Virus record (IMG/VR): IMGVR_UViG_3300050343_000259
Length of the DNA: 37,403 nt
DNA from: an uncultured virus (IMG/VR IMGVR_UViG_3300050343_000259)
Taxonomy: Duplodnaviria; Heunggongvirae; Uroviricota; Caudoviricetes
Strand: one strand, 5' to 3'
The position numbers and the translations under genes were made by a program. The notes beneath the pieces are model-generated. The model searched no databases. It was not told the origin of the DNA and was given only the letters and a program-made list of their open reading frames with translations. This document shows positions 2,235 to 23,881 of this stretch, in pieces (the stretch's first letter is position 1; the number at the start of each line of letters is the position of its first letter).

Positions 2235-3821
2235 CTACTTTAATGTTGTTAACTTCTTTAAGTTTTTATCAATCAATTTTTGTATTGACTCTGCCCTAAA
2301 TGAATTAATTCGTTTTTCATCTGATGTTACACTAGCATCTAAATTTTCTAAACTTACTTTTAATTGATTATAAAGATAGTCCAAACTAAAATTAACTTTT
2401 AGTGATTCATCTGACTTTAATTTTTTGACTTTTCCTCCTTTTTTCATACGAGATTTTGCTCTAACTCTATCTGCTTTGCCCGATGAAATAGCACCAAAGT
2501 ATCTTTTCTGTTTATCAGTTAATTTCTTTCCATTTGCAATACCATCATCTAGTATTTGTTTAGCTTTTGTAGGTGTAAGCCCTCCTTTTTTAAACTTTCC
2601 TTCGTTGTCAATATAATATAAATCTCCTTCATATTCAAAACCTATAGCTTCTTGACCCCATTTTCTAGCCCATTCTTTTACTTTAGAAACTACTTTTGCT
2701 TCATTCTTACTCCAATCCTTTTCATTAGCAAATACTGATACTTTAACTATATCTTCTTCTATTATTTCTCCTGACTGAGATTTGTAACCTCCATCTGTTT
2801 CGGTTTCAGTATATCCACCAAATTCATTAGCTACATAATTTTCCACTTCTTTGACTCTGCTTTCTAACTCCTCCTCAGATATTTTATCTCCTACATTAGA
2901 TGTAGATGGAACATAAATAACAAAATTCTTATCAAATTTAAATTCTTTTGACAAGGCACCACCTCTCTCATAAGGACTTGATACCCAAAGTTCTCCGCCT
3001 TTTTCCATCTTCAATTCCTTTTCATCTACCTTAGCTGCTTTACCTCCCATTACCGCACTATATACTCTAGCTTGAGCCCATTGCTCTTTTGATTTAACAT
3101 TAGGTCTAACACTTGATGGATTAGTTTTATAGGCTCCTATGCCTTTATTGTATATTTTTTGAATTCCTTTTTTTGAAACACCGGTATCTTCTGCTATATC
3201 CGATAATGAATTTGATGCATCTAAATCATTTCCATACTTTTTATTATATTTTTCTTTCCAAGTCTTTGCCTCTTTGGTCTTACCACCTTTTTTAAATTCA
3301 GTTGGCTTATTAGGATAACGAGCAGGAATTAAATATCTATCTCTTGTTAGTTCTCTATCAACACTATCTGCTCCGCCCCAATTAGTTTTAGAGTCTTGTA
3401 TGTATTTGTCTACTGCAACTCTTATTTCTTGTAATGAAAATCCACCATCATAGTCTTTAGCATAGATTCCTTTATTCCCATAAAAGTCATTCATATAATT
3501 TTCAAAATATTCTCTTTCACTAAAAGGTATATAGCCGCCTTCAGCAAATTCTTTTTTCTCAAATTCTTCCTCTAAAACATCCGGATTTTTACAATGATAA
3601 TTGATGTGCTCTGCATACTCATCTAAAGTTACTTTTCCATCATCATTTAAATCGAAATGTTCGTGTAATTCATCTTTAGTTATGTCGTTAGGATTTTCGG
3701 GAAAATCTTCTTCAACTTTACTGTTTTTCTTATCAAATATTTCAGCATAAGAATTATAATTGCCTTTTTCTCTTTCACTATTTCTTATAGCTAATAGTTT
3801 TTTCTTTTTTTCTCTATCCAT
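2235..3821 (-). CDS. Modular (polyvalent-like) protein with six xxxGG-delimited units: EF-hand-like loop, DUF5824-like module, DUF3574-like module
   Basis: Motifs FAEGG, FKKGG, MEKGG, YERGG, FKKGG, MKKGG; EF-hand-like DLNDDGKVTLDE; IYNKGIGAYKTNPSSVRP..WAQARVYS (DUF5824-like, from memory); FGGYT..GGY..GEIIEE..GQEAI module. Confidence 0.8.
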   Translation of the reverse strand: MDREKKKKLLAIRNSEREKGNYNSYAEIFDKKNSKVEEDFPENPNDITKDELHEHFDLNDDGKVTLDEYAEHINYHCKNPDVLEEEFEKKEFAEGGYIPFSEREYFENYMNDFYGNKGIYAKDYDGGFSLQEIRVAVDKYIQDSKTNWGGADSVDRELTRDRYLIPARYPNKPTEFKKGGKTKEAKTWKEKYNKKYGNDLDASNSLSDIAEDTGVSKKGIQKIYNKGIGAYKTNPSSVRPNVKSKEQWAQARVYSAVMGGKAAKVDEKELKMEKGGELWVSSPYERGGALSKEFKFDKNFVIYVPSTSNVGDKISEEELESRVKEVENYVANEFGGYTETETDGGYKSQSGEIIEEDIVKVSVFANEKDWSKNEAKVVSKVKEWARKWGQEAIGFEYEGDLYYIDNEGKFKKGGLTPTKAKQILDDGIANGKKLTDKQKRYFGAISSGKADRVRAKSRMKKGGKVKKLKSDESLKVNFSLDYLYNQLKVSLENLDASVTSDEKRINSFRAESIQKLIDKNLKKLTTLK

Positions 3822-3824: not shown

Positions 3825-6800
3825 CTATAATACTTTTTTCATTTTTTCAATTTCTTCCATCAATTCTTTACGCAATCCCTCATCTTTTTCTTCTTTTATC
3901 ATTGATTCAAGAATATCTATTTGTTCTGCAATTTCTTTGTCAAACTTTTTTAAATCTACTTTACCACCTTTTTCATATTCTTCTGTGTAATAATCATCTT
4001 CATCAGGGTCGTATAATGTATTGCCTTCATATTTTTCAATCAAATCTTCTACTTCACTTTTAGTTAAATCATCTACATCATAATATCCCATTATCTCCGT
4101 AAATTCTATATCATCTCCTTTTATTTCAATACCTTCTTCTAAATTATTCCGGTCTACCTCCAACATAGCGAAACTTACACTCACCTCCCCATAATTATCT
4201 GTATCAAACACTCTACCACCTTTTTCAAATTGTTTATTATACTCTTCGGCTCTTTTTTCAATTTTATTTTTTATTACAATTGGAGCCTTTTCATAAGTAA
4301 TTGTTTTACCCCAATGGCTTATGTCAGCAGGAAATTCTGCTCTGTTTCCTGCATACATATCTATACTCATATTTGGCATAGTATGATGGTTCATTTCATA
4401 TACATCTCCGTGCATTACTATAGTATAATCTCCATCCAAGCCTTGATATATGTCTACTTCATTCATATCTAGCTTTCCTCCATCTTCAAGTAATCTTGCT
4501 CCACTATTGTCAGATTTAACAAAAGAACTACCAACACTTTTTCCTGAAGTAGATTTGATTTGATTTATAAACTCCTGTAATTCTGCTTCACTTAACTCAA
4601 AAGTATTTACATTCCTATTCATCATATCTGAAGCTAAGTGCCAACTTGTATTTCCTGATTTGCTTAAAATACCTTTTCCGGTAGGCAAGTGTATCTCTCC
4701 AAATTTCTTGTCACTTTGAATTCTAATTTTATCAGTTTTCTCAGTAATTGGATATACTATAAAATCTTGTGGCTTTCTCATACCTTTAACCTTTAGGTCA
4801 AAAGATGTGGTTCCCATTATATTTTTCTTATAGTTTGTTATTGGTGAATCAGTTTCTCCCCCTTTTGCATAAGGTACTGCTTTAGTTTTTCCTGCTCTTG
4901 CGAACTCTAAATCTTCTTCATCTTCCACTACACTTATATCTCCTGTATCTCCAAAATAAACATAGTCATTAATATTTATTTCTTCATCTTCTCTTAATTC
5001 ATATTTATCTCCAAAACTATCTGTTATAACTTCGCCACCTTTTTCAAATGGCTTCATTACTACTCTTTCTCCCAAAGGATAAGTATCGTTTACTCTATAA
5101 ACAGTATCAATTAGCAAGTCTTTAGGATTTTCTCCTTTTGGTCGTACTCTATCAATTTCAACTAATCCTACCCCATCTTCTTTGAATTTATTCTTTCCCC
5201 ATTCAATAGCTTCTTTTTCACTAGCAAATCTTTTAGAATCTCCATATTTTAAATTATGTCTGTGCTCTAAAGCTACTGCATTGTAGTGAGGTGTAACTCC
5301 ACCTTTTGCGTAGTAATTTTCAATTTCAATTTTTTCAACTTCTTCTAAAGGCAACATTCTCCAAGTGCTTTCATCAAAACCTTTCATTGTAGCAACAGAA
5401 TCCTTTTCGTATGAAGAACCTTGATAAATATATTTAATACCTTGATTATCATAAACAACAACATCATCCCCATTATCGAGTGCATTGTCAAATTTATCCA
5501 ATTCTTTTATAGATATTTTACCACCTTTTGCGTAGGCAGTTACCATTGGATATTCTCCTTTGTATGAGTCATCAGCTATTTCATAGAGATATTCTCCATC
5601 TTTAGATACTTCAACATACCAAGTTCTTTTAAATTTACTTTTTGCTAATTCTATAATAGATTTTGGTGTGCTATTTTTAGGAATATCAATATCTCCTAAT
5701 AAAACTGCTCCGCCTGTATCATCACCTTTAAATCCAACAACTTCTCCTTTGTAAGTTAAATTTTTGTCTATGGTACCTCCCTTTGCATAGTTTTTAGAAA
5801 TATTTCCTTTAGTTTTTATCTTAGAATAGGTTTTTCCTAAATCAATTAATTCATCATACTTTTTATTTGCCTCTTCTAATGTTGCATATTGCCAAACCTC
5901 TTGATTTTTACCCGGTCCTTGTCTGCTTATGCCATACTTATAATTTCCTTTATACTTTAATCCATCTTGATTTCTTAAAGGGTTTAGTTTTACTAAATTA
6001 AATATCCATCCATCTTCAAAGTTGGTATATCTTAACAATGGACTTATATTGGTTCTTCTTACAGAGCCACCTTTTGCATATTTATTTTTCCATTTATTAT
6101 TGGCAGTTTTTATATAATCTTCCTTGATGGCTATTTCTTCAAAATTATCATCATCAACATTATATCCGTGTTGTTCAAAATGTTCTTTCAAATCTTCATC
6201 AGTATATCTAACTCTTTGGTCATAAGTATATTTAGGGTTTTTTATTCTGCCACCCTCTGCGTAGGTAGAACCGCCTTTTGCATAATCTTTTATAGCCTTG
6301 TCTAGTGAAAGAAAAACAACATTGGCACTTGCTCTATTAAACTTTGGATTTTTGTCATCATAATCGCTATTTAAATCATTATCCTCAGACATAAAATAAA
6401 CTCTGCCGTTTTTAATATTTATTTTTACTAATGGCATTTCACCACTAACCATATTATCCGTTTGAACTCTTGCTAACATTTCTCCATCATTTAGAGGAAT
6501 ATGTGAGTAAAATTTTTCATCATAATCATCTAGTTTATACAAATAATAATCTCCAATATATTTTTTATCTATCTTGTGAGCAAAGGCTCCAAAAGATTTT
6601 TGACCATTAGATGATTTTTTGCTTTCCCAAATTTTTCTTGAAGAAGTATTATCTTTTAAGTCTGTAAATATTACTTCTCCTCCTTTTGCCATTTTCTCAA
6701 TATCTCCAATTAAATAACTTCCTTTTTCTCCTGAAAATTCTACTTGGTCTTTTTTGTTTTTTGATATGTCAGTAACTTTCATTGTAGTTCCGCTATCTTT

Positions 6801-7361
6801 TATTTTTACTTTATCACCTTCATATATAGCACCACCTTTAGCAAAGAATAAACTATTATCTACCTTGATGTCAGAGAATTTTATATTATCTAAATTTTCT
6901 TGTGAAACCTGTTTTATTTCTATTGGTTTTGTTTCAATTTGTTCTACGGTTTCTTCAAACTCTTCAGCCGGAGGAGAATCTGCACCTGATGGATTGTAGC
7001 GGCTCTCTAAATCTTGTTCTTCTACAGTTTCTACAAACTCTTCAGCCGGAGGAGAATCTGCACCTGATGGATTGTAACGGCTCTCTAAATCTTGTTCTTC
7101 TACAGTTTCTACAAACTCTTCAGCCGGAGGAGAATCTGCACCTGATGGATTGTAACGGCTCTCTAAATCTTGTTCTACAGGAGCATCAGTATTGAGTTCA
7201 CTCAAAGCCGCATTAATTTTAATTATTTCTTGAGCATTTTTATCATACATCATTTTATAATCACGGTCATCAAGGTCCTCTTCAAACATTTCTTGTTGCT
7301 CGTTTAAATCCTCTAAGATTTCTAATAAATCTTCTTCTGTTTTATTGGTGTAATCTTCCAT
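3825..7361 (-). CDS. 1178-aa modular protein with 13 (Y/F/M/L)xxGG motifs separating unrelated units; candidate polyprotein
   Basis: FAKGG, MAKGG, YAKGG x6, YAEGG, FEKGG x2, LEDGG, YEKGG; acidic N-terminus containing a 26-aa tandem repeat. Confidence 0.85.
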   Translation of the reverse strand: MEDYTNKTEEDLLEILEDLNEQQEMFEEDLDDRDYKMMYDKNAQEIIKINAALSELNTDAPVEQDLESRYNPSGADSPPAEEFVETVEEQDLESRYNPSGADSPPAEEFVETVEEQDLESRYNPSGADSPPAEEFEETVEQIETKPIEIKQVSQENLDNIKFSDIKVDNSLFFAKGGAIYEGDKVKIKDSGTTMKVTDISKNKKDQVEFSGEKGSYLIGDIEKMAKGGEVIFTDLKDNTSSRKIWESKKSSNGQKSFGAFAHKIDKKYIGDYYLYKLDDYDEKFYSHIPLNDGEMLARVQTDNMVSGEMPLVKINIKNGRVYFMSEDNDLNSDYDDKNPKFNRASANVVFLSLDKAIKDYAKGGSTYAEGGRIKNPKYTYDQRVRYTDEDLKEHFEQHGYNVDDDNFEEIAIKEDYIKTANNKWKNKYAKGGSVRRTNISPLLRYTNFEDGWIFNLVKLNPLRNQDGLKYKGNYKYGISRQGPGKNQEVWQYATLEEANKKYDELIDLGKTYSKIKTKGNISKNYAKGGTIDKNLTYKGEVVGFKGDDTGGAVLLGDIDIPKNSTPKSIIELAKSKFKRTWYVEVSKDGEYLYEIADDSYKGEYPMVTAYAKGGKISIKELDKFDNALDNGDDVVVYDNQGIKYIYQGSSYEKDSVATMKGFDESTWRMLPLEEVEKIEIENYYAKGGVTPHYNAVALEHRHNLKYGDSKRFASEKEAIEWGKNKFKEDGVGLVEIDRVRPKGENPKDLLIDTVYRVNDTYPLGERVVMKPFEKGGEVITDSFGDKYELREDEEININDYVYFGDTGDISVVEDEEDLEFARAGKTKAVPYAKGGETDSPITNYKKNIMGTTSFDLKVKGMRKPQDFIVYPITEKTDKIRIQSDKKFGEIHLPTGKGILSKSGNTSWHLASDMMNRNVNTFELSEAELQEFINQIKSTSGKSVGSSFVKSDNSGARLLEDGGKLDMNEVDIYQGLDGDYTIVMHGDVYEMNHHTMPNMSIDMYAGNRAEFPADISHWGKTITYEKAPIVIKNKIEKRAEEYNKQFEKGGRVFDTDNYGEVSVSFAMLEVDRNNLEEGIEIKGDDIEFTEIMGYYDVDDLTKSEVEDLIEKYEGNTLYDPDEDDYYTEEYEKGGKVDLKKFDKEIAEQIDILESMIKEEKDEGLRKELMEEIEKMKKVL
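6942..7175. repeat. Three near-identical 78-bp tandem repeats (EQDLESRYNPSGADSPPAEEFVETVE)
   Basis: Units start at 6942, 7020 and 7098; in-frame within 3825..7361. Confidence 0.95.
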
Positions 7362-9600: not shown

Positions 9601-12600
9601 TTATTTTACTCTTATTTTTAATAATGGCATAGACCTATTAAAATTTTCAATTAATGTTTCAAGATTATCGCCTCTATTTTTTGAGTTCGCCTCTTGAATT
9701 TCCTTCTCTACTACTCTTCTTTTTTCTTTCCACTTTTTCTCGCTATCTAATTCTTGTTGACCTTCGATTATTTTATTAGATGCACTACTTATTAATTCAT
9801 CAATATCGTAGATAGAATAATTCTCCTTTGTTTTTTCATCTTTTACTTGATTCTCAATTAAGTAGTAATAGTTCGACATAATACTTTCATTTTCAGAACC
9901 TGTTACAAATTCATTTACTCTTCTTACCAAAGCATCATAAGTAAAGCCTTTTTTGCCTGTTTGATTTCCAAAAATTACTTTAACAATTTGCTTTCCTAAA
10001 GAAGATTCCTCGGTTGTCCTTGACATTTCTAAATTTTGCTCATCAGGTTCTAAATCAAGAATAGTTTGAATTTCTCCTTTTCTTGCCCTAATCATTCTTC
10101 TTACTTTATCAGCTACTTCATTAACCTCTGTCATTTGTGATGAGGAGTTTAGGTATATATCTTGATTTTCTAATATTATATTATTATTATCAATTTCTTT
10201 TTGAATAATATCAATTGCATCACTCATAGAAACCGGAACAAATTTATTCTCTTCTTTCCAAGCACTTCCTCTTCCTCTACTATCTACTTGATACTCATAT
10301 TGTTTTTGAATATCTAATCTTGTCTTTTCTTTGTCAGCTAACATTCTAATCTCTCTGTCTATCACTAATTTGTATAGTTTATTCATAGTGAAAACATATC
10401 TATCATAAGAGGTTTTAACCTCACCATAATTGTTTTTAATGGTATTTAATTTACCTTTTATATCAGAATATCTTGAAACCTTTGCGTTCAATTCATCAAC
10501 TTTATCTTGCCAAGCTAAATCAGTTAATTGGTCAATATCAGAGATTATGTTTCTAATTCTTTCTTTAGCATTTATAGTGTATTGTGTTTTATTTAATTCA
10601 TAAACACCCTGCTCTAGCATTACTTTAATTTCATTAATCTTCGTTTGAAGTTTTGAATAAATAAATGCATCTATGCTATCTCTACCAAGAACATATACTA
10701 TTCGTACAAACTCCCACATATTTCCTTGCCTCCAAATTCTACCCTCTAATTGCATAGCATTAGATGGAGAAAAATCACTATCTAAAACATATAAAGTATG
10801 TGCCCTTTTGTTCAAATCAATTCCTTCCTTAATAGCAGATGAACCTATTAGTATTTTTATTCTTCCATCATTAAACTTATCTCTAATATCCTCTCTAGTT
10901 CCAATTTTTTTCTTATCACCATTTTCATCTAACATTACATTATTAAATTTGTCAGTAGCATCAACAGTTTTTGACATACCTCCTGTAATAATTCCTATTT
11001 GGTCTTTAGTGATAACCTTTTCCTTTTCTTCAATATTATCGTAGTATTTTACATTTCTATCTACTATATATGTTTCAATCATTTCATATAAATTATAGTA
11101 GTTACCACCATACTTCATACTTTTTCCTTTATTAACATAAATTATTTGACCACCGACCTGTTTGTCATTGGCAATAGATTTAGAGTCGTTAGTAATAGTG
11201 TTAATAGCACATTCGATTGCATACTTTATTTTAGGGCTATTTTCCACAAAGTTTTTAGCTGATTTAGACTTGTCATCCGGATATAATGGAAAGTCTTTTA
11301 AAAGGTCATTAGGAGTGTTTCCTGACTTATCACATTTAAGTAAATAAGGAGAGATAACACATAGTTGACCAAATCCTTGCCCTACTATTGCTCTAGCTAA
11401 TCTTACTTCGTTTTTGCTATTTACAGTTAAGTCTATATCTTGATAATTACTATCGTATAAACTCTCTTCATCTGCCATATCTTTAAGTGTTTCAGGCTCA
11501 AACAATGCCTTGTCTACTTTAGATTGTTTACTAGCAATTCTTCCATCTTCAGGATATTTTTCTCTTAATTCTACTAATATTTTTCTTGCGTTATGAAATA
11601 ATTCTATCCACTCATTACTTTCTTGCTCTTCTTCTTTTGCTTTTTTAAGAATTGCATTTACTTCTTCTATTGACTCTTCTACTTCTTCATTAGCATAAGT
11701 TATCAAGCCTGTTTCTTCTTCAACTTTTATTGCCTCTCCATAATTAGGACAGTATTCAAATGGAATATCAATTTTCCCCTCAACATATTCTGCTATTTTC
11801 TTTAGAATTTGTTTTTGAACATCACTTAATTCAATATAACTAGAAACATTTTGAAGTTCAGGTGCCCATTGAACAGATGATGTATTTGCACCTGCTTGAA
11901 AACCTCCATCAGCCCCATCTTGAGGTATAATATACTTTAGTGGTCTTGTAGCTTCTATAATCTTATCAGATACCTTAAAGTTAGCCATAGACTTAATAAA
12001 GTTAGCCATAGCTGCACTATTATAATAGCTTTTAATTTCAGGAAATAATCCAAAAGTTTGTCTGTGAGTAATGTTATATCTCCACTCTTCTTTTACAAAT
12101 GTTACAAAGAAGTCCCAAACAGACATAATGTTACTATCTTTCATCTTTTCAAGATTAGTCATACCAAATACAGAAAACATTTGAAATATATTATCTGTAA
12201 AAGGAGTAGCAGACATTAGTATCGTATTGTTAACATTTTGATTCTCTTCTTTAGATTGAATTTGAAATACTAAAGCCATTAAATTAGATGGAGCAGTAGT
12301 TAAACTTCCCTTACCTGATGAATAATACTTTAATCTATAAGCTGCTTGAGCCTCGTATTTTTCTGTTTTTATATTTCTTTTAAAAGGATGATGGTAGTTA
12401 GTATTATCTTCTATCTGAAGTCCTTGAGTAGAGTTTATATTCTCTCCATCCGGTAAAAATTTAAGAGCCGCACTTGCACTCATTGTTGGTAATATGTGGA
12501 AGTCCTTGTCAACCTTTTTCTGACCACCCCTTAATGGTGCAACATTGGAAAGCATATGCTCTCTTGGCTTACTAATAAGATTATTGAAATTATGTATTTC

Positions 12601-15600
12601 ATCTACACAAATCCCATCAATATTTAATTTTCTTAATGATAAAGGTTGATTTGCTAAATTATCAAAGAACCTGTTAGTGCTCTTATTAACATATCTTACA
12701 TCTTCTACATTTTGAACATACATCTTAGCCTTTTCTCTAGCTTTTGAAGTAGCACGGAATTGTTTAATAGCTTGATGAGAACAAAGCACAATTTTATTTG
12801 GTTTTAAAACTTCAGGTCTGTAGATGCCTAATACATCAATTAACATACCTTCAATCTTTTTTAATAAAGCCGTAACTTTTCCTGTATTCTTACTACCTAT
12901 AGGATTAAAGAACTCTAAACCTACTTTGTTTTCAAGTGATTTAATTTTACTAACTCCTATTTCTGTCAATGCACCTTCCCATTCTGTATTTAAGGCTTTT
13001 GTTTCAGAAACAATTTTATCATACTGTGCTTGAGTAATCACACCATCTTTAAGTGCATCCGAAGGATTATCTATCCACCCTTTTTGTGGATATGAACTTT
13101 GTGCAATAGCATAGTTTTCTATATTCTTATTTGCTTTAGGGTCTGCTTTTTTCCACCATTCTTGTATTGACTGTGGATATTCTTTTATTTTCAGTTTTTT
13201 ATCGCCTGTAAAGTCCTGATAAGTATATCTATATCCCGTTTTAATTCTTTCAAATTCACTATCTACTTGTGCAATATTATAATCAATTAACCTTTTGATT
13301 TTATTAATTATTTCTTCACTTGCCTCTTGTATTGGTCCATCATCAAATAGCTGAGGTATTTTTGTAGGTAAGTAATCAAATAAGAACTCTTCATACCATT
13401 CTTCTGCACTTGACTTTATAGAGGTTTCAGAAAATCTTCCTCCTTCTACTTTTCCATTACTAAACTTAATAATTGGTAAAGTGTCCTCCGGTAAAAATGT
13501 GGCTCTACCTGCCGGTAAGTTTGATATTTGTTTTTTTACTTCAGCTAAAACACCCTCGCCTTTTCTTCCATTCCAAGCATCTATAATTTGCAATTCTTCC
13601 TCATTATATTCTTTTAAGCCTTGTTTATCTTTAGTTCCAAATAATATTTTTTGAGAACCATTTCCAAACATTACTACATTAACCGCATCTTTATTGTTTT
13701 CTCTTTTGTTCTTTTCAATTACTTGCCAATTTGATAGTAAGCCTAAAACACCTGTTGTATCTCTACCAATAATTTCATCAGCAAATTTTTCATAAACTTG
13801 ATTAGGAGTAAATACAATTGTTCTTTTGCTTTCTCCTGTCAAAATCATATGTGACATCATTGCAATAGAAGTAGTTGTTTTACCAAATCCTACCTCGTGA
13901 GCCAATAGACCTGCGTTTTTGTTAGCAACGGAAAATTTCATTCCCTCAACTTGTGCTTCTCGTAAATTAAATAAGAAAGGTCTTGGCATTTTACCAAACC
14001 ATCTTGAGTGCTCTACAAATATTGGAAATTTTGTATAGTCTGAAATTGCCATATTATTGTATGTAGAGTTCCATAGTTTCTCCAAATAAATACGATAATC
14101 AGGCTTTAATTGTGTTTTACAAAATGCGGTAAATAATGTATTACCTTCAACAATAATATCACTTTCAAGTTTTTTGTATTTGTCTGTAATTACATTATAA
14201 ATTCTTTTTGCTTCCTCCTCAGTTATTGGAGTAAACATTTGCTTAACTGTAATTGTATTTTCTCTGTCTTTTGGGTCTGCAATTTTTAACTCAACTTCTA
14301 CTTTAGGTTTATCTTCTACTAAACCTACTTTTATAAGATTCTCTCTACTTTGCTGAGTTAAGTTGCTAAATTGATAACGGTCACTCTTTTTATATAAATT
14401 ACTTCTTGTAAATGTTTTTTGACTCTTTACTAATTCAGGAATAAATTCTAAGGGTGCCTTTATGTTACTACCATCTTCAATTATTTTTTCAAATTTTGGA
14501 AGAATATGTTTCGTTATGAATTGTGCGGATGGAATAGGAAAAACATATCCCTCTATCAATAAAAACTCATTCTGCTTTAAGAACGGGTTGCTTATAAAAT
14601 CAATGCCTTTTCCGAACATTATCCATTCATAAAATTTCTTTAAGTGATTATTAGTTAAGTTAAGAGGGTTGTTTCTCTTAAACTCATCATAGGCAGTTTG
14701 TCTTGAAGAACCTCCTATTTTAATTGGGTTATACATATTATCCCCTTGCTCTACAGTAGATATTTTTACTTTTCCATCTCTGAAAACACCATAACCTTTT
14801 CCAATTCTACCAACAAAACCATCATCACTAGCAAAGAATATAGGATTATGAACATTTACAATAAGATTTTTATTTGGGTCTTTATCTCCAAATGAAAGAG
14901 GCTCAGGTATTGCTTTTTCAAGAATTGCAAATTGATTGTCTATAATTATGTTTCCTTTATTCTCTCCGTAATATTTTCTTATATTATCTGATAATTCTCC
15001 TTGTAGTTTATTAAGTTTTTTATAAACATCTCCCGATACATATTCATAACTGTATGAATACTTTCTATTTGTTACTTGACCTGAACCAATAGCAATATCA
15101 AATTCTTCAATACAAATGTGTCCTTCTTGTAATAGTATTGGAAACAGTTTTTTTGAAAAAACAAAATAATCAATACCTAAAATTCTTTGACATAATTTTC
15201 TGAAATAACTAGAATTATCTCTTGAACTTCCTCCTTTTGTAACAAAATAAGCCAACACTTCTTTGATTGTCATATTTTGATTATTCTTCCAAAAAGTTTC
15301 TCTTACATCATATATGTAAAAATAATCAGGATTACTCCATTGAAAATTTCCATCTTTGTTTTTATAATACTTGCCCTCAGATGCATCAAGTGACCATTTT
15401 GGATTCTTTTTGTTTTGCCAAACTAAATTAAATTTTCCTGACTTATCCTTAATTTGAACTTGTTCAGCATAAGTATAAATGTATGATGTTATACTTTTTA
15501 AAAGTAATTTGTAAAAAAGTTCACCATCTTGAATATCAATAAGTTTAGATTGTCTTTGAATTGATTCTTCTAATCCCTCTGATTCTTCAATAACATTCTC

Positions 15601-17028
15601 AGCTAATAAAACAGGTCTTACATCTTGTTCTTCAAATAATAATGTCTTTTGCTGAATTGATAATGATGGCTTAAAAAGTTCAGCATAAATTATGTGTTCA
15701 GAGTTAGATAAGAAATCAGAAGAAATTCCTTTGCAATATCCATACTGCTCTGCGTTCTTATTTACAAAATAAGCCTCATTTTTATTTTCATTAAAATAAA
15801 TATCTATTATATCTTCTTTGTTATCTCCATAAGTAGCACAAGACAAAGCAAAAAATAAATCGTTTGACCTAACATTAATAAATGATTCGTTTTGTTTATC
15901 AAAATATAATTTAGATGATATTGCATATTGACCTCTTTCTTTTTTAAAGATATTATTAGAGGCATCGTAAAAGTTTCTACTAATACAACTAAAAGGCATT
16001 ACATTTTGCAAAATTTCTTTACCTCTTATTCCTGTAACCTTTGTGTATTTTTCATTAACCGGAAGAGATTCAACTAAATCTGTTTGCTTTTGTATTTTTT
16101 CTAAATCTTTTTCGGTGCAACTAGCTTTATCTGAAATTTGCATTAATGATATATCACTTGCTTCTTTATTAATTGTGTCTTTAGTAAAGAAACCTGTAAA
16201 ATAAGATTGGTCTGTAGATGATTCTAAAGAAAGTGGAGAGCAATTGTAGTCGTATTCTTCAGTTAATTGTAAAGATTTAGAAATATAGGTTTTTGCATTT
16301 TTTATGTAGCCTCTTGCTCTTGTTAACTTATAATCTAACTTTATACTATCATTGTCATTATTGACAACTATCTGAAAATATTTTCCTGTATTTGCAGCCG
16401 TAGAATCGGTAAATTTAAGATTTACAGGCGATAAGGCTATTGCCATTTCTTTGATTTCCTGAATTCCAAGTGCTTCACCTGTGTAATCTATATAATGCTT
16501 GTAAGTTCCTGTATTTATGGAGTTTATAATTCCATATGGTAAAGATTCAAAATTTAAATTAGTGTATATTTTATCATAAGTTGATGGTCTTTCACCTAAA
16601 GTTTGAAATGTAGTGTTTAGTACACTATAATTTATAAGGTTGGCAAGAGCATCAACCAAAAATTCATATTGTGCATTAGTATATAACTTATCAATTAATT
16701 TTCTCACATCAGGGTCTTTTTTACCCTCCTCTGTTAAAATTCTTGCTTTAAAATATTCCGACTTTTGCTTTCCTTTTAAGTTGGATTCTATTTTTAAGTC
16801 TTTCCAATATTGTGTGTTAATTCCAAAATCTGCTTTTACAAGTCCTTCTGTTGAGAATCTAGTATTTGTATCTACAAAAGGGCTACAATTACCATATAAA
16901 AATCTAGGGTTTCTTGAAACATACTTAGCTATGACATACATATCTTCGTTTTTCAACAAAGTATTATACTCAACCTCTTTATTTAGATTCTCTACTATTT
17001 CGCTTATGTAATTTAATATTCTTGCCAT
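9601..17028 (-). CDS. Giant SNF2/SF2 helicase, DarB/polyvalent-protein type, with no recognisable methyltransferase domain
   Basis: Motif I LLAHEVGFGKT, II VDEIHNF, III LMSATP, V LIGSSAIKEGIDL, VI QLEGRIWRQGN; family-typical EYVSGDVYKKL and SIDAFIYSKLQTK. Confidence 0.9.
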   Translation of the reverse strand: MARILNYISEIVENLNKEVEYNTLLKNEDMYVIAKYVSRNPRFLYGNCSPFVDTNTRFSTEGLVKADFGINTQYWKDLKIESNLKGKQKSEYFKARILTEEGKKDPDVRKLIDKLYTNAQYEFLVDALANLINYSVLNTTFQTLGERPSTYDKIYTNLNFESLPYGIINSINTGTYKHYIDYTGEALGIQEIKEMAIALSPVNLKFTDSTAANTGKYFQIVVNNDNDSIKLDYKLTRARGYIKNAKTYISKSLQLTEEYDYNCSPLSLESSTDQSYFTGFFTKDTINKEASDISLMQISDKASCTEKDLEKIQKQTDLVESLPVNEKYTKVTGIRGKEILQNVMPFSCISRNFYDASNNIFKKERGQYAISSKLYFDKQNESFINVRSNDLFFALSCATYGDNKEDIIDIYFNENKNEAYFVNKNAEQYGYCKGISSDFLSNSEHIIYAELFKPSLSIQQKTLLFEEQDVRPVLLAENVIEESEGLEESIQRQSKLIDIQDGELFYKLLLKSITSYIYTYAEQVQIKDKSGKFNLVWQNKKNPKWSLDASEGKYYKNKDGNFQWSNPDYFYIYDVRETFWKNNQNMTIKEVLAYFVTKGGSSRDNSSYFRKLCQRILGIDYFVFSKKLFPILLQEGHICIEEFDIAIGSGQVTNRKYSYSYEYVSGDVYKKLNKLQGELSDNIRKYYGENKGNIIIDNQFAILEKAIPEPLSFGDKDPNKNLIVNVHNPIFFASDDGFVGRIGKGYGVFRDGKVKISTVEQGDNMYNPIKIGGSSRQTAYDEFKRNNPLNLTNNHLKKFYEWIMFGKGIDFISNPFLKQNEFLLIEGYVFPIPSAQFITKHILPKFEKIIEDGSNIKAPLEFIPELVKSQKTFTRSNLYKKSDRYQFSNLTQQSRENLIKVGLVEDKPKVEVELKIADPKDRENTITVKQMFTPITEEEAKRIYNVITDKYKKLESDIIVEGNTLFTAFCKTQLKPDYRIYLEKLWNSTYNNMAISDYTKFPIFVEHSRWFGKMPRPFLFNLREAQVEGMKFSVANKNAGLLAHEVGFGKTTTSIAMMSHMILTGESKRTIVFTPNQVYEKFADEIIGRDTTGVLGLLSNWQVIEKNKRENNKDAVNVVMFGNGSQKILFGTKDKQGLKEYNEEELQIIDAWNGRKGEGVLAEVKKQISNLPAGRATFLPEDTLPIIKFSNGKVEGGRFSETSIKSSAEEWYEEFLFDYLPTKIPQLFDDGPIQEASEEIINKIKRLIDYNIAQVDSEFERIKTGYRYTYQDFTGDKKLKIKEYPQSIQEWWKKADPKANKNIENYAIAQSSYPQKGWIDNPSDALKDGVITQAQYDKIVSETKALNTEWEGALTEIGVSKIKSLENKVGLEFFNPIGSKNTGKVTALLKKIEGMLIDVLGIYRPEVLKPNKIVLCSHQAIKQFRATSKAREKAKMYVQNVEDVRYVNKSTNRFFDNLANQPLSLRKLNIDGICVDEIHNFNNLISKPREHMLSNVAPLRGGQKKVDKDFHILPTMSASAALKFLPDGENINSTQGLQIEDNTNYHHPFKRNIKTEKYEAQAAYRLKYYSSGKGSLTTAPSNLMALVFQIQSKEENQNVNNTILMSATPFTDNIFQMFSVFGMTNLEKMKDSNIMSVWDFFVTFVKEEWRYNITHRQTFGLFPEIKSYYNSAAMANFIKSMANFKVSDKIIEATRPLKYIIPQDGADGGFQAGANTSSVQWAPELQNVSSYIELSDVQKQILKKIAEYVEGKIDIPFEYCPNYGEAIKVEEETGLITYANEEVEESIEEVNAILKKAKEEEQESNEWIELFHNARKILVELREKYPEDGRIASKQSKVDKALFEPETLKDMADEESLYDSNYQDIDLTVNSKNEVRLARAIVGQGFGQLCVISPYLLKCDKSGNTPNDLLKDFPLYPDDKSKSAKNFVENSPKIKYAIECAINTITNDSKSIANDKQVGGQIIYVNKGKSMKYGGNYYNLYEMIETYIVDRNVKYYDNIEEKEKVITKDQIGIITGGMSKTVDATDKFNNVMLDENGDKKKIGTREDIRDKFNDGRIKILIGSSAIKEGIDLNKRAHTLYVLDSDFSPSNAMQLEGRIWRQGNMWEFVRIVYVLGRDSIDAFIYSKLQTKINEIKVMLEQGVYELNKTQYTINAKERIRNIISDIDQLTDLAWQDKVDELNAKVSRYSDIKGKLNTIKNNYGEVKTSYDRYVFTMNKLYKLVIDREIRMLADKEKTRLDIQKQYEYQVDSRGRGSAWKEENKFVPVSMSDAIDIIQKEIDNNNIILENQDIYLNSSSQMTEVNEVADKVRRMIRARKGEIQTILDLEPDEQNLEMSRTTEESSLGKQIVKVIFGNQTGKKGFTYDALVRRVNEFVTGSENESIMSNYYYLIENQVKDEKTKENYSIYDIDELISSASNKIIEGQQELDSEKKWKEKRRVVEKEIQEANSKNRGDNLETLIENFNRSMPLLKIRVK

Positions 17029-18745: not shown

Positions 18746-19798
18746 TTATTTTTCTGATTTGACCATATCTATATAAACTTCTTTAATGTTTGCATCACTT
18801 CTGACCCAAGGTGCTCTTTCTTCAAGGATTTTTCTGCTTCCTTTTGCCGTTACCCATATTTGTTTAGTAGGTCCATACTTTTTATAATCTGCGAACTCAC
18901 TTCCTCCTATGAACATATCACTAAAGAAAATTACGCACATTTCATAATCAGGATTTTCTTTTTGTTTTGTTCTTTCTATATCTCCTAATTTTCTAAATGC
19001 TCCATTAAATGATGTACCACCACCACCGTGATAAATAATTCTTTTATCTACATCTTTTAAAGGCTCCTCTGCATTTGGAACACCAAATTTCGGGTCTTTA
19101 TCATAATCGTACATACTACAACTATCACATACCCACATTTGCCCTGAATACTTTTTAGCTAAATCAGGTATGAATTGAGATAAAAGTTCTAAAAACGATA
19201 CTCCTGCTTCTGTATAGCTTCCCATACTTCCGGATTGGTCTAACAAAACAATAACCTCTTTGTCATCATCTATTACTTTTGACTTTGCCTTTCTAAATAC
19301 TGCAATACCTTGAGAAATATATGTTTGGGCTCCTTCATAATCTATGTTTTTTCTTCCCATTTTAGGTAAGCCTATTAACTCTCCTATTCCTGCTTCTATT
19401 TTACTAAACCACTCAGGCTCTCCTCCTTCACTTTCAGGAACTGCCATACTACCTATTTCTCCACCTTTTCCTTCTCCTATTGCATCAGGAGGTAGTATAT
19501 ACTCTCCATCAGGAAATTTTATTTTGTTGCTTAAAATCTCAGCTTTTATTTCACTAACATTAAACTCTGCCTCTCTAATATCTTTTAAGTCTTGAGCAGT
19601 TAATTGTTCGTTTTCATTAAAAGCATTTTTTTCAATTGAACCACAAGAATCAGGCATATCTGCCGTAATGGGATTAAGTATCTTATTTTGGGCTTTTATA
19701 TCATCTTTTAGCCTACCAACAAGACCTTCAAGATTTTCATTTAATCCTGAAATAATATCATTATATTTTTCTTCTTTTTGCTTGTAATTCATTACCAT
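18746..19798 (-). CDS. VWA-domain protein (DUF2201 C-terminal-like)
   Basis: MIDAS motif VLLDQSGSM, GGGGTSF, IFFSDM. Confidence 0.85.
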   Translation of the reverse strand: MVMNYKQKEEKYNDIISGLNENLEGLVGRLKDDIKAQNKILNPITADMPDSCGSIEKNAFNENEQLTAQDLKDIREAEFNVSEIKAEILSNKIKFPDGEYILPPDAIGEGKGGEIGSMAVPESEGGEPEWFSKIEAGIGELIGLPKMGRKNIDYEGAQTYISQGIAVFRKAKSKVIDDDKEVIVLLDQSGSMGSYTEAGVSFLELLSQFIPDLAKKYSGQMWVCDSCSMYDYDKDPKFGVPNAEEPLKDVDKRIIYHGGGGTSFNGAFRKLGDIERTKQKENPDYEMCVIFFSDMFIGGSEFADYKKYGPTKQIWVTAKGSRKILEERAPWVRSDANIKEVYIDMVKSEK

Positions 19799-20007
19799 TT
19801 ATTTTGGGGACAATGTTGTCCTCTTAATGCAGTTTTTGCTTTTAAAATACACCCACAAGTTAGTTGTCTACCACTTCTGTCGTATTCAGGTCTTAATAAA
19901 GTTCCACAAGTTAGTCCAACTCCAAAAGTCTGTTTTGAATAGGGACATCTTGCACAGATATTTAACCTGTCTTGTGCCGTTAATTCTCTAGGTGTGTTAT
20001 TCCACAT
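19792..20007 (-). CDS. Small Cys-rich (zinc-binding) phage protein
   Basis: RLNICARCP...CG...CGCILKAKT...CPQNKW, a pattern common in phage small proteins. Confidence 0.75.
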   Translation of the reverse strand: MWNNTPRELTAQDRLNICARCPYSKQTFGVGLTCGTLLRPEYDRSGRQLTCGCILKAKTALRGQHCPQNKW

Positions 20008-20012
20008 ACTAA

Positions 20013-21596
20013 TTATTGTTTTAATTCTTCTAACTCTTCTAATGCAACATCTATATACATCATCTCTTCTTGTGTCAACTTATCTTTATGCTTTAGCTTA
20101 ATACTATTAAAATTGTCTATTGACTTATTAATGTTTTTTGTTAAGTTGATGTCTTTTATTTTTTCCTCTAAATCTTCTTTTCTTTTTGTTTGTTCTTCTG
20201 TCCAATCAGGAATATCATTAGCATCAAAATCTGAATCTTCCTCTTTTTCATTTTCTCCTTTTCCCTCTGCCTCTCCTTCTCCTTCTCCTTCTGCTTTTCC
20301 TTCTCCCTCTTCTTCGTTTACTTTGCTATCTCCTTCATTTTTATCTTGTTCCGTGTCTGATTGTGAACCTGAGCCTGAGCCATCTTCTTCATCCTCATCT
20401 TCATCCTCGCTTAACTCATCTGACCACACACCATCTCCTTGATTGTTTCCATCTACTCCTCCATTGAGTAAATCCTCAAGTATTTCTTCTTTTTCTTTGA
20501 TTATTTCTTCCGGAGTTTTGTTTTCATCTCCACTATCTCCACCTTCTCCATCTCCGCTTTCTCCACCTTCTGAATCTCCACCTTCTGAATCTCCACTTTC
20601 TCCATCATCATCATCATCTCCTCCTGAATCTCCTCCTTGACCTTCATCTTCACCATCATCTCCATACTCTCCTTGTTGTCCTTCTTCTTCAGGGATAGCT
20701 GATATTATTTGTGATTTAGTAAATACACCAAGTAAATCTCCGCTTGTCGTAAGCTGCATTCTTGATTCTTTTACTGCATCCATTAAAGAATTGAATTCTT
20801 CTTCACTTATACTTTCTACAACATAATTTCCCTCTTCATCTATATCTACTATTTTTCCGGGGTCGCCATTGTAAGGGGATTCGTTTGTGTCAATTATTAC
20901 ATAATCTCCTATTTCAAAATCTTTTGGCTCTTGTTTATCTTGTTCTTGGTCTTTATCGTTTTCTTGCTTTTGTCTTTTATTAGCTTTATTGAATTTATTA
21001 GCTATAATCCACCACTCAGGTATGTAAGGGTTATCCGCATCGTAAGGCAAATCAATCTTACCAAATTGTTCTTCAGGAACTAAAAGAGATTGGTCTTTAT
21101 CCTTAAAATTCATACACTTATAAACCTCTAACAATCCGCTTCTACTTAGTTGGTCATTAATTCTGATGTCCATACAACAATTAGCATTACGAACATCGCT
21201 AAAAGGCATTGTAAGTAAGCAATCTCCTCTTAATATATGACCCATTTCGTGTCTAAAAGCTGCTTTCATAGCAGGTTCCCAATAGCACATATATTTAGTA
21301 AATGTTGGATAGCCTATATAAAATCTTTTTTTCTTTCTTGAATATGCTGAGTAAAAAGTAGTAGCTTTTGGGTCATAGTAAAGCAATATATCATTTGGTA
21401 TCATTCCTGCTTCTCTAATCAAATCATCAAGAACACCTAATCTAAAATTATCAGAAATTCTTTTCAGATTTTGTGTAATTCTAGCTGAACTGTTTTTTAA
21501 TGCCTGAAATTTAAATTCACCAATATCATCTTTAGCACTTTGCATATAAAAGTCCCAAAACTTACTCCAATCAGTATAATATTTATGTTCTGACAT
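20013..21596 (-). CDS. Zincin metallopeptidase-like protein (DUF2201 N-terminal-like) with KOW/SH3-like domain and long acidic linker
   Basis: FRHEMGHIL (HExxH) followed by ANCCMDIRIN (NxxxDxxIN); FEIGDYVII..GKIVDID; D/E/G-rich tract at about 20200-20690. Confidence 0.82.
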   Translation of the reverse strand: MSEHKYYTDWSKFWDFYMQSAKDDIGEFKFQALKNSSARITQNLKRISDNFRLGVLDDLIREAGMIPNDILLYYDPKATTFYSAYSRKKKRFYIGYPTFTKYMCYWEPAMKAAFRHEMGHILRGDCLLTMPFSDVRNANCCMDIRINDQLSRSGLLEVYKCMNFKDKDQSLLVPEEQFGKIDLPYDADNPYIPEWWIIANKFNKANKRQKQENDKDQEQDKQEPKDFEIGDYVIIDTNESPYNGDPGKIVDIDEEGNYVVESISEEEFNSLMDAVKESRMQLTTSGDLLGVFTKSQIISAIPEEEGQQGEYGDDGEDEGQGGDSGGDDDDDGESGDSEGGDSEGGESGDGEGGDSGDENKTPEEIIKEKEEILEDLLNGGVDGNNQGDGVWSDELSEDEDEDEEDGSGSGSQSDTEQDKNEGDSKVNEEEGEGKAEGEGEGEAEGKGENEKEEDSDFDANDIPDWTEEQTKRKEDLEEKIKDINLTKNINKSIDNFNSIKLKHKDKLTQEEMMYIDVALEELEELKQ

Positions 21597-23881
21597 TATA
21601 ACTTTTCAATTAATTCTTTTAATCTTACTCCATTTCCTGACTCTTTCATTCTTTCATTCAAACTACCTTCATAGAACCTAGTAAGTATTGATTTAACTCT
21701 AGGGTTTTTAAAGAAATTCATTACTTTTTCTGATTCCCCTCCTTTTTTACTTTCTTGTAAAAACTTGATATATTTTTCGTTGTCTGCTAAAGTTGAATCA
21801 AAAAATGATGCAAAAGCACCCATAAAGTAATATCTAATATAAAGGCTTAAAGAAAGTGAGTTTTCATAATTGTTTAGTCCGTATAATCCACTTTGCTCTT
21901 GACTTTTTCTTTGAGCAGGTTTCATTCCTCTTAATTTCGATTTAGTTTCGCCATACATCATTTTTTCTGTCTGTTCGGCATCTACTTTAAGAGTATGTGT
22001 TTCAATTTCTCCTTCTTTATTTAAGAACTTTTCAAAAAAGTTATTTACTTCTAAAATTTGCTTTGTAAATAAATCAGAGTCTATTTGAGTATCTCCTCTA
22101 AGATTTATCATTATTTGCTGATATATAAAAGGAATCATTTTATCTCCTACATTTGCTAATTGGTCATAATTTCCTGCTTGATTTTCGTTAGATGCTTGAA
22201 TATATGATAATGCATTTAATGTCCAAGAAGTTAGCTTTGATGGGTTTCCATTAGTTTGAGCATAGCTATTTGACAACTCTAATTGAAGATAATTGAAGTA
22301 ATCCTTTTGATAATCTTTAAATGATAGTGCAATTTCGTTTCTCAATCTCATTACAGGACTTATATTTCCACCGCCTACTTTTGATGCTCCTGCTAATGAT
22401 GCCCCAAAACTTTCCTCATCACTCTCAGTATATAATTCTTCAGCTAAACATAGCCATAATGCACCTAAACTTTCATAATAGTTTTTTAATCCGGGGTCAC
22501 TTTTATAATTTGACTTTCCTCCAAGATAATTATCTCTCCAAATCATTCCCCAAGCAGTATCATTAAAAACCTTATCATCATTTGACAAAAGCCTTACTGC
22601 TGATGACATATCTCCTCTTGCCTTTCCTAATATTTTTTGAAAATATGAACTAAAATTTTGATAAAAATAATTTCCACTTCTATCTCTTTGATTTAGCATT
22701 TTTGGTAAAAAGCTATATTGCCATTGTAAGTTAACTTCATCAAGAAAAGCTACTTTCTTTAGTAGCAATGAAACATCCATATCATTAGGACCAAATTTAT
22801 CTACACAATCCATTACTTTGGTTGCATTTTTATCCGGTGGATATAATGCCATTGTGCTTCTCATAATTATTTGACAAAATCTTCTAAATAGTGCTTCCTC
22901 AATATCTTTAGTGGCATTTGCTATTCCAACTATTCTACAATCCATTAAAGGCAATCCTTTAGATACTTGAGAACGAACTAAATCTGCCATATTACGATAA
23001 TCTCCATAATCAACATCTAATGGAATTGGCATTCCCTTTTTGTTGTTTATTTCTTTCATTGTCCAACTTTTCAATGTTCTTTCACGAACAATATGTAACA
23101 ATGGTGCATATTTTTCTTTTTCGTGTTCACTTACCTTATCTAACTCATCAAGTATTAACCAATAATTACCATACCCTAAAATGGTACACAAATACATACA
23201 TAAGTCCCGTATGTCATCTCTTCCTGCTTCTAACGCATCTAAAGTGTACTCGTATGCAGTTTCTGCCTGTACTGCCGTTTCAGGGCTTCTTTTGAACACA
23301 AATTCTTTTGAATTCAATATTTCACGAGTAGTAGCATTAGATAAATTGTTTCTTGGATTATCTACCAACTGAACACTAATTTCTTGTTCGCCTTCAGGAT
23401 AATCTAATTCCATCAATGCTAGTAATATTTGATGAAGTATTTTATATGAATAAGAAAATTTTGTTTGAGGCTTATCATAAACCTTTATGTAGTTGTCAAA
23501 AATTGTTTGACCATTTGCTACTTGTGTAGAAATTGTACTACTATTTGGAAACCAATAAGGTTTTAAGAATTTTAGAATATCTTCTCCTGTTCTTATTTTT
23601 TTACCCTCACTATCTCTTTCTGTATCGTAATCTTTACTAATTAATTTTGCTAATCCTTCTATGTTTTCAGGCTTTTCTGAACCAATGTAAAGCATAGATG
23701 AAGGAAGCCTCCATTTTTCTGTAATTTGTAATAAAGTATAAGACTTACCAATTGATGATTTTCCTACAATTAAAACAGGTATATCATATCTTACGAGTTG
23801 TAAAATAGTTTTTAGTGTTTCGGTTCCTATTTTATCTTTTTCAACTCTTAATTTTTGTATTTCATTATTATCCCGTGCCAT
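21596..23881 (-). CDS. MoxR/dynein-related AAA+ ATPase
   Basis: Walker A VLIVGKSSIGKS, Walker B LILDELD, sensor 1 IANA, arginine finger ALFRRF. Confidence 0.85.
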   Translation of the reverse strand: MARDNNEIQKLRVEKDKIGTETLKTILQLVRYDIPVLIVGKSSIGKSYTLLQITEKWRLPSSMLYIGSEKPENIEGLAKLISKDYDTERDSEGKKIRTGEDILKFLKPYWFPNSSTISTQVANGQTIFDNYIKVYDKPQTKFSYSYKILHQILLALMELDYPEGEQEISVQLVDNPRNNLSNATTREILNSKEFVFKRSPETAVQAETAYEYTLDALEAGRDDIRDLCMYLCTILGYGNYWLILDELDKVSEHEKEKYAPLLHIVRERTLKSWTMKEINNKKGMPIPLDVDYGDYRNMADLVRSQVSKGLPLMDCRIVGIANATKDIEEALFRRFCQIIMRSTMALYPPDKNATKVMDCVDKFGPNDMDVSLLLKKVAFLDEVNLQWQYSFLPKMLNQRDRSGNYFYQNFSSYFQKILGKARGDMSSAVRLLSNDDKVFNDTAWGMIWRDNYLGGKSNYKSDPGLKNYYESLGALWLCLAEELYTESDEESFGASLAGASKVGGGNISPVMRLRNEIALSFKDYQKDYFNYLQLELSNSYAQTNGNPSKLTSWTLNALSYIQASNENQAGNYDQLANVGDKMIPFIYQQIMINLRGDTQIDSDLFTKQILEVNNFFEKFLNKEGEIETHTLKVDAEQTEKMMYGETKSKLRGMKPAQRKSQEQSGLYGLNNYENSLSLSLYIRYYFMGAFASFFDSTLADNEKYIKFLQESKKGGESEKVMNFFKNPRVKSILTRFYEGSLNERMKESGNGVRLKELIEKL

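Follow-up and report, generated by a model that had tools for sequence, protein, structure and literature searches.

A stretch of 37,403 nucleotides from an uncultured tailed virus (IMG/VR record IMGVR_UViG_3300050343_000259, Caudoviricetes), referred to below as the window, contains a minus-strand gene (3825..7361) for a 1178-residue protein of an uncultured marine phage in which unrelated domains are separated by copies of a short Gly-Gly peptide, here called the joint. The gene is a polyvalent effector array, a class already known, with a standardised joint. As judged from sequence comparisons, the joints are shown to be sites of in-frame exchange. That they are also protease sites is plausible, falling only a little short of an even chance. 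Possible, if on balance doubtful, is a combined reading in which the joint has two roles: it would be the site of a dedicated Gly-Gly-directed protease that frees about a dozen effectors from a packaged or injected precursor, and also an in-frame crossover point for trading cassettes, so that the gene would act like a protein-level integron. The array comprises a conserved N-terminal module, about ten interchangeable domains of 50-140 amino acids (aa) and a conserved C-terminal block, connected by seven-residue joints.

The reading frame is open throughout and encodes 14 GG dipeptides, 13 of them within the pattern [YFML]xxGG; the remaining one, DDTGG, is at residue 550. An earlier note on this DNA, which viewed the product as a precursor cut after GG, had listed 13 copies, and their plus-strand positions, the intervals between them (51, 136, 7, 61, 97, 85, 74, 88, 59, 127, 87 and 84 aa) and the status of DDTGG as the sole other pair were all reproduced exactly. 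When the protein was shuffled 5000 times the pattern occurred 1.2 times on average and at most 6 times. Among the 33 open reading frames (ORFs) of the window, the target has 13 copies, the frame at 2235-3821 has six, that at 23885-24475 has one and the other 30 have none. The earlier count was thus right for the 1178-residue protein but overlooked the six further copies in the adjacent gene (2235..3821). Its description of the motif as (Y/F/M/L)xxGG likewise fits all 13 copies, but the true word is tighter and longer, at seven residues. The gene and its joints are as follows; brackets give the lowest base of the GG pair and the residue at which a segment ends if the cut is placed after GG.

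3825..7361, minus strand: target gene, a cassette-array (polyvalent-type) protein of 14 segments (M0-M13), assigned from its ORF, its segmentation and 139 homologues at E<=1e-3
6825..6845, minus strand: joint 1, FAKGG-AI (6831; 177)
6672..6692, minus strand: joint 2, MAKGG-EV (6678; 228)
6264..6284, minus strand: joint 3, YAKGG-ST (6270; 364)
6243..6263, minus strand: joint 4, YAEGG-RI, a doubled joint 7 aa past joint 3 (6249; 371)
6060..6080, minus strand: joint 5, YAKGG-SV (6066; 432)
5769..5789, minus strand: joint 6, YAKGG-TI, modelled with low confidence (see below) (5775; 529)
5514..5534, minus strand: joint 7, YAKGG-KI, likewise (5520; 614)
5292..5312, minus strand: joint 8, YAKGG-VT (5298; 688)
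5028..5048, minus strand: joint 9, FEKGG-EV, recombined with joint 10 in the relative L050 (5034; 776)
4851..4871, minus strand: joint 10, YAKGG-ET (4857; 835)
4470..4490, minus strand: joint 11, LEDGG-KL, an L-type variant between the always-adjacent M10 and M11 (4476; 962)
4209..4229, minus strand: joint 12, FEKGG-RV (4215; 1049)
3957..3977, minus strand: joint 13, YEKGG-KV (3963; 1133)

A search of 5.8 billion proteins found 139 relatives at E<=1e-3, many of which align over just 5-50% of the query; the motif and module statistics use the 120 that were listed, every one of which (120/120) has 4-23 copies of the motif. Their 964 unique contexts give the consensus [YF]-A-[KDE]-G-G-x-[IVTL], which is sharply bounded, the flanks being uninformative in the position table. 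The first position is Y in 59% and F in 28% (Y/F 87%), the second is A in 75%, the third is K in 70%, D in 15% and E in 11% (K/D/E 96%), and the second residue after GG (+2) is I, V, T or L in 89%. Since the Ala and the +2 residue were not fixed by the search pattern, their conservation is independent evidence for the word. Proline is found in 2/964 contexts at the Ala position, 0/964 at +1 and 1/964 at +2, compared with 1.3-4.1% in the flanks. Doubled joints, 6-10 aa apart, are common. No specific N-end-rule signal was seen at the position that would follow a cut (LFYW 10.7% at +1 vs 10.0% at +3).

Is it the peptide or the underlying DNA that is conserved? The 13 joints of the target use mixed Gly codons. 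The commonest 15-mer accounts for 6/115 copies in the lineage of the window and 11/344 in a second lineage, third codon positions vary, and the two lineages favour different Ala codons, GCA and GCT. There is nevertheless a lineage-specific codon bias (GGC for the first Gly 51% vs 14% background; GAC for Asp 86% vs 41%), from which it follows that recent copying of joints also contributes. On these codon data selection on the joint acts on the peptide and not on a DNA word or a Shine-Dalgarno site. It is accordingly hard to credit that K-G-G is a nucleic-acid signal, embedding Shine-Dalgarno sites (AAAGGAGG) or internal starts from which the modules would be translated separately. AAA GGA GG does resemble a Shine-Dalgarno sequence and the +2 residue is frequently I, V or L, but the first Gly is GGA in only 3/13 copies in the target, an upstream Shine-Dalgarno sequence precedes 0/33 window genes, and the potential start codons at +2 are depleted (GTG 2% vs 7% background, TTG 4% vs 23%). 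We rejected this reading on the codon data.

Cutting the 120 homologues at the motif gave 1339 segments with a median length of 85 aa, which fell into 463 clusters, 289 of them singletons. By cluster, the target has the architecture 3-22-1-95-4-6-x-16-30-0-2-96-23. Across the homologues the first module and the last block are conserved and the middle is shuffled; other families carry other end modules, for example DUF2958 in first place. The modules singled out in the text are these.

6831..7361, minus strand: M0, the conserved N-terminal module (cluster 3), always first (32 proteins), acidic and holding a tandem repeat
6942..7176, minus strand: tandem repeat in M0, 78 nt x 3.0 (26-aa acidic units), 98% matches
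6270..6677, minus strand: M2 (cluster 1), found more widely than any other cassette (55 modules in 54 proteins), with stand-alone homologues
5520..6065, minus strand: M5 + M6 (clusters 4 and 6), two separate folded domains in an AlphaFold model
4857..5033, minus strand: M9, a 59-aa cassette missing from the otherwise identical L050
4476..4856, minus strand: M10 (cluster 0), the most conserved module (60 proteins), a small beta-rich fold with a disordered conserved tail
4215..4475, minus strand: M11 (cluster 2), which follows M10 in 36 proteins
3828..3962, minus strand: M13 (cluster 23), a conserved helical K/E-rich C-terminal tail

The intervening sequences had been described as unrelated, and profile-profile comparison bears this out: among the 13 segments of at least 25 aa, with the motif stripped beforehand, 0/78 pairs exceeded 50% probability and the best reached 8.4%. 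None of the target's 13 modules has a convincing Pfam or PHROG match. Homology stops exactly at the motif; cluster 4, for instance, has at least 13 different sequences directly after GG. The expectation that modules would recur elsewhere in a different order or as free-standing genes was confirmed on both counts. Order and combination differ among the 120 homologues, and in the stand-alone module homologues the motif is absent or decayed: P0128 (148 aa) is M2 without the motif, P0124 and P0130 have a variant motif ahead of the module, P0123 has the motif six residues before its end, and P0163 is M4 followed by the motif and a hydrophobic tail. The modules were also said to be the size of small phage proteins, which agrees with the finding that three of those in the neighbouring joint-bearing protein match whole small-protein families.

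AlphaFold models are in line with this picture. M10, modelled from an 11-row alignment, is a confident beta-rich unit (residues 1-106) followed by a disordered tail that bears the motif, and M5+M6, from a 17-row alignment, form two separate folded units, although this model is a moderate one (mean predicted local distance difference test score, pLDDT, 62.8). All four modelled motif copies (one in the M10 model, three in that of M5+M6) have pLDDT <50, so that both models yield the independent domains with GG in linkers that the earlier note had anticipated. The M10 fold had no match at E<=0.001 in Foldseek searches of PDB and BFVD, and the best hit of a wide VIA-align search (PliC, Z 5.7) is inside the tool's stated noise. 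The joint is thereby shown to be a linear motif, free of proline, in the predicted flexible linkers that connect unrelated folded units. Could the modules instead all be diverged repeats of a single fold, GG forming a structural turn? Their sizes are alike (the median being that given above), but the profile comparison found no related pair, the secondary-structure orders of M5, M6 and M10 differ, and the motif lies in low-confidence linkers and not in turns within domains. This explanation, which the earlier note had raised against itself, has next to no probability, and a single repeat fold was rejected on the profile comparison.

A metagenome scan for close relatives of the locus recovered 11 loci, and these reveal how the array changes. 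In three of them (L051, L052 and L053) the genes flanking the target (2475, 741, 528, 322 and 389 aa) are 97-99% identical to those of the window, whereas the target is only 72-80% identical. Module by module, most cassettes of these three loci are 94-100% identical and the others have been replaced by unrelated ones. Because only the target turns over between near-identical genomes, it is the hypervariable part of the locus, and cassettes are exchanged at the joint. In 22/38 junctions of L051-L053 the identity to the window is >=95% over the 60 nt to one side of the 15-nt word and <=53% over the 60 nt to the other; one further junction is ambiguous. A fourth locus, L050, equals the window except that M0 has one tandem-repeat unit fewer and M9 is exactly absent, and the one joint left there is chimaeric between joints 9 and 10, which flank M9 in the window. 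Repeat copy number also varies elsewhere, M0 being 177 aa long in the window, 151 aa in L050 and L053 and 145 aa in L051 and L052. These comparisons show whole cassettes to have been gained, lost or replaced exactly at the joint, with breakpoints inside the 15-base motif, a property that the earlier account did not foresee.

Does the joint need any partner? It might be a standardised linker kept only by cassette exchange through in-frame crossovers, with the Tyr and the Ile/Val as domain-capping residues. The breakpoints within the 15-nt word, the deletion that left a chimaeric joint and the preferred joint codons of each lineage (GGC, GAC; GCA vs GCT) are all in its favour, as is the stand-alone P0128, which retains the V-I-F and Y residues without GG. 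Yet third codon positions are free, no 15-mer makes up >5% of copies, the shared exact word is just ~8-11 nt, and two deeply diverged lineages have the same peptide in different codons; moreover the Ala, the +2 residue and the exclusion of proline across 463 unrelated module families are hard to explain by fold capping. We regard a partnerless linker as improbable.

The use of the joint outside the target bears on what a partner might do. An IMG/VR scan with the whole protein gave 0 matches and one with the M10 alignment gave 33 viral contigs. In G001 (102 kb), G005 (77 kb) and G004 (80 kb) the motif is restricted to one contiguous block of large genes, whose region contents include Zeta-toxin, ART-PolyVal, DUF5661, LPD11 and DUF2958. 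Module-sharing homologues of the target carry Zeta_toxin, RelA_SpoT, ArdA, DUF2958 and LPD11 domains (PF06414, PF04607, PF07275, PF11171, PF18824). In single-domain toxins of G001 and G005 a joint lies 11-15 aa from the N-terminus, or a shared C-terminal tail comes after a joint, or both. In 5/5 Zeta-toxin or ART-PolyVal proteins (G001 19419-23884; G005 53396-56657) a joint precedes a tail of 16-19 aa, ..(T/V/N)P(D/N/E)YL(E/R/K)MFL(GK/DL), and this shared ..P(D/N/E)YLxMFL.. tail may be a targeting tag. Some genes stop 2-3 aa past a joint, and in G004 such a gene is followed by one for a stand-alone M10-type module. With joints at leaders and tails, doubled joints and genes split at joints, linkage of the modules is dispensable.

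Another kind of ending was seen in P0060, P0064, P0067, P0091 and P0163, in which arrays (and a 67-aa stand-alone module) end in a joint plus a hydrophobic ..EMIIGGLAGxLLGxFLNK. This looks like a C-terminal membrane anchor.

If the joints are protease sites, each would be bound in an extended conformation by a trans-acting enzyme that cuts at or beside G-G, and cutting would free individual effectors and remove leader and tail peptides, either after particle assembly or after delivery into the host. Such a site would explain why a single word recurs at unrelated junctions by the hundred and also at the termini of single-domain toxins. The word is proline-free and exposed, and it stands before short leaders and tails on toxins that might need inactivity or targeting. 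The only candidates seen for the enzyme are lineage-specific zincin-like proteins, one of which lies in the window within a row of three genes.

20013..21596, minus strand: candidate trans-acting zincin-like protease, HEMGH at residue 116, a lead only
21596..23881, minus strand: P-loop ATPase (761 aa), Walker A at 40, Walker-B-like LILDE at 242, weak PHROG ATPase match (E 4.4e-4)
18746..19798, minus strand: VWA-like protein, metal-ion-dependent adhesion site (MIDAS) DQSGS at 187, VWA_2 match at E=0.0015, which is below the Pfam cut-off

The zincin-like protein (527 aa) is KOW/SH3-like in its middle and carries a long acidic tail rich in G/D/E/S, and the H, E, G and H of its HExGH are invariant in 31/31 aligned homologues. 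Its gene sits between those of the P-loop ATPase and the VWA-like protein, which have counterparts in G001, G004 and G005, and the row (window 18746-23881) may be a chaperone-peptidase set. PF13203 (DUF2201_N) did not match the window protein and matched 1/31 homologues at E 0.0067; Atlas scores of 0.88-0.89 are a lead only. Comparison with PDB profiles returned KOW-like matches only, and PDB sequence searches with the 527-, 741-, 761- and 350-aa neighbours gave nothing usable. A second zincin-like protein (261 aa, PMRxAILxHEFSHFYxNE...EAD; L037:8177-8959 in G001, also in G004 and G005) has no family match; it occurs in 9/21 related viral records and in 4/6 complete ones.

Several results weigh against processing. 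The protease families that the earlier note had in mind, Ulp1/C48, C39 and prohead proteases, did not turn up: scans for C48, C39, C5, adenain, S77, S78, S49, ClpP and prohead protease found none in 23 proteins of the window, which is part of a genome, none in the complete relative G005 (63 ORFs against PHROGs and 56 against Pfam, of 101 called) and none in G001 (49 and 38 proteins scanned), and Peptidase_S78 (PF04586) was found in 0/5 records. Divergent proteases could be missed by family scans; the only papain-like enzyme found is a CHAP domain of the kind typical of lysins. An embedded zincin fares no better, HExxH occurring in 2/171 proteins against 1.6 expected, which is chance level. The zincin candidate of the window has a match in 0/33 joint-bearing IMG/VR records, including 0/6 that are >=90% complete, an empty result that is weak since the search had no positive control; as a universal joint partner it was rejected on this count. 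A later protein search on 21 of these records did give matches, and with the HEFSH protein in only 9/21 of them, no single candidate tracks the motif. There is no avoidance of GG inside modules (641 observed outside the motif vs 564 expected). The fourth residue before the presumed cut (P4) is Ala, unlike that of LXGG or (M/I/L)XGG sites, and proline exclusion and an extended conformation fit a non-cleaving partner equally well. Finally, cassette exchange alone would explain a joint at every boundary. Cleavage after GG, as first proposed, has so far gained no support, as no such protease was found and P4 is not bulky and hydrophobic.

Some of these points suit a protein that stays whole. The domains might be uncleaved beads on a string, the joint serving as hinge and as a handle bound extended by a non-proteolytic partner, which could be a packaging adaptor, an unfoldase or chaperone (for example the neighbouring ATPase/VWA pair), the portal or the tail channel, with the domains loaded and threaded singly. 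A word of seven residues that excludes proline and lies in flexible linkers is as well suited to beta-strand docking as it is to a protease cleft; the scans found no protease; and a P-loop ATPase and a VWA-like protein are nearby, with counterparts in the three related genomes. There is also a precedent in the crAss001 cargo proteins, which, in the passages of PMC10172136 that deal with them, are carried whole and partly unfold to pass the tail. What such a string does not account for is that joints at toxin leaders and tails, doubled joints and genes split at joints make module linkage dispensable, and that stand-alone module homologues lose the motif. We consider it rather unlikely.

The protease reading can be compared with systems in which Gly-Gly sites or boundary peptides are established. 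Gly-Gly cysteine proteases include adenain, pS273R of African swine fever virus (ASFV), Ulp1 and the deubiquitinases, coronavirus PLpro (LXGG) and the C39 leader peptidases, with a bulky aliphatic residue at P4, and ASFV polyproteins are cut at several G-G sites. The joint resembles their substrates in having G-G at P2-P1 if the cut follows the second Gly, a variable, solvent-facing P3 and an upstream hydrophobic anchor; it differs in its aromatic anchor at P5, its Ala (75%) or Glu (12%) at P4 and its conserved aliphatic residue at P2'. In polymorphic toxins, VENN (CdiA) and PxxxxDPxGL (Rhs) mark the point at which toxin cassettes are exchanged, and the Rhs motif is also cleaved. A short conserved peptide at the cassette-exchange point is thus common to both, but polymorphic toxins have one boundary and one C-terminal cassette whereas the phage protein has a dozen serial boundaries.

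Phage internal proteins offer a nearer comparison. The prohead-protease cleavage motifs of T4 and phiKZ end in Glu, whereas the joint has G-G. According to the abstracts of PMC10052503 and PMC5694885, T4 internal proteins with a capsid-targeting leader and phiKZ/SPN3US ejection proteins are processed by a prohead protease. As with the joint, a short motif recurs in many proteins; there, one phage protease removes targeting peptides and the products are injected. A recognisable prohead protease is present in those phages and none was found here, and the joint is confined to the effector block of G001, G004 and G005 and occurs in no recognisable head protein (no capsid protein being identifiable). 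The crAss001 cargo, described in part of PMC10172136 as large particle-borne proteins of Bacteroidota phages that are ejected ahead of the DNA, has no sequence relation to the array that was found, and the relatives showed no recognisable crAss-like genes for head proteins or RNA polymerase; the words 'cleav' and 'proteoly' do not occur in the text of that paper, in which 'processed' appears twice. For jumbo phages, section 3.4.5 of Iyer et al. 2021 (PMC7824862) proposes a role in virion assembly and in peptidolytic processing of virion proteins for MoxR AAA+/vWA systems with an N-terminal metallopeptidase. The window's row of P-loop ATPase, HExGH protein and VWA-like protein is similar, but its peptidase and VWA are separate genes with a weak family match, and the peptidase is absent from the other joint-bearing lineage.

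The class to which the array belongs is set out in the text of Iyer et al. 2017 (PMC5512222): polyvalent proteins are large proteins of phages and conjugative elements with 2-15 unrelated conflict domains and extensive mosaicism, for which the same text proposes autoprocessing by embedded zincin metallopeptidase (MPTase) domains. The target conforms to this description with its 14 segments (no pair related) and its relatives in IMG/VR viral contigs; a second joint-bearing protein and an SNF2/DarB-like giant flank it, and in each of G001, G004 and G005 the effector genes form one contiguous block. It departs from it in that this family is without an embedded MPTase, HExxH being at chance level, and in that its own 13 modules match no described Pfam or PHROG family. 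Strain-level cassette turnover at a fixed joint is absent from the text of PMC5512222, which likewise has no linker, glycine, boundary, spacer or GG-motif wording, its supplements being a separate place that could hold motif alignments. Literature searches on the joint motif strings gave no phage paper by title, and those on Gly-Gly polyproteins and their processing in phages brought up no phage case. Neither the conserved joint, nor its use at protein ends, nor the turnover of single cassettes at the joint between near-identical genomes was found in print.

Why should such a word matter? Polyvalent proteins are considered one of the chief reservoirs of counter-defence functions in phages, and their domain boundaries are usually guessed. 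With every boundary in a large family of uncultured marine phage proteins flagged by this seven-residue word, small unknown domains can be excised cleanly for testing by the hundred. A difference confined to a single gene and made cassette by cassette is what one would expect at an arms-race locus, and it indicates the cassettes worth testing first. Should the joints be cleaved, tailed phages would possess a genuine polyprotein that yields many products, together with a protease specificity that is new; should they stay intact, the joint ought to lead to a docking or threading step in protein delivery that is likewise new. Were both proposed roles of the joint real, the array would be a phage counterpart of the polyproteins of eukaryotic viruses, and the motif a natural delimiter for hundreds of small effector families (463 clusters in 120 proteins).

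Two neighbours of the target deserve mention.

2235..3821, minus strand: second joint-bearing protein, 528 aa, 6 joints; its modules match phrog_7799, DUF5824 and phrog_3543/DUF3574
9601..17028, minus strand: 2475-aa SNF2-type helicase / DarB-like polyvalent protein, no joints

The giant, encoded two genes upstream of the target, combines SNF2/ResIII and Helicase_C domains with matches to DarB-like and methyltransferase PHROGs. Its identity is 97-98% in the near-identical L051 and L052 and 81% in the more distant L058; the protein is jointless, as opposed to the 14 joints in each of the G001 and G005 giants. Against phage records it gave only a weak match to Leptospira phage LE1, and tblastn of the target or of M10+M11 against 50,697 phage records found no isolate relative. 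A host scan of 185,579 species genomes yielded four metagenome-assembled genome (MAG) contigs from four unrelated taxa, which are probably mis-binned phage DNA. The lack of Shine-Dalgarno sites and the G+C content of about 30% are only a hint of a Bacteroidota host. In G001, G004 and G005 head, portal and large terminase genes are unrecognisable by PHROGs or Pfam; G005 has one weak terminase-nuclease-like match (a 271-aa protein, E 1.8e-05), whose counterparts in G001 and G004 are found by BLAST only. This phage group is structurally uncharted.

The 196-aa protein at 23885-24475, which has the one remaining motif copy in the window, shares an N-terminal module of ~75 aa (H-x-D-G-G-I ... E-G-G-E; no family match) with three giants, G001 23919-28964, G004 30357-32912 and G005 46547-53392. 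The joint that follows this module is FRKGG in the window protein, FADGG in G001 and G004 and the variant FANGG in G005. A PAP2-family membrane phosphatase (window 131-1099) is among the few genes common to the window and these three genomes (30-35% identity). Nucleotide-sugar genes (an NAD-dependent epimerase/dehydratase, an RmlD-like fragment and a cytidylyltransferase) lie at 29469-32959 of the window, and the relatives carry glycosyltransferases and a sulfotransferase.

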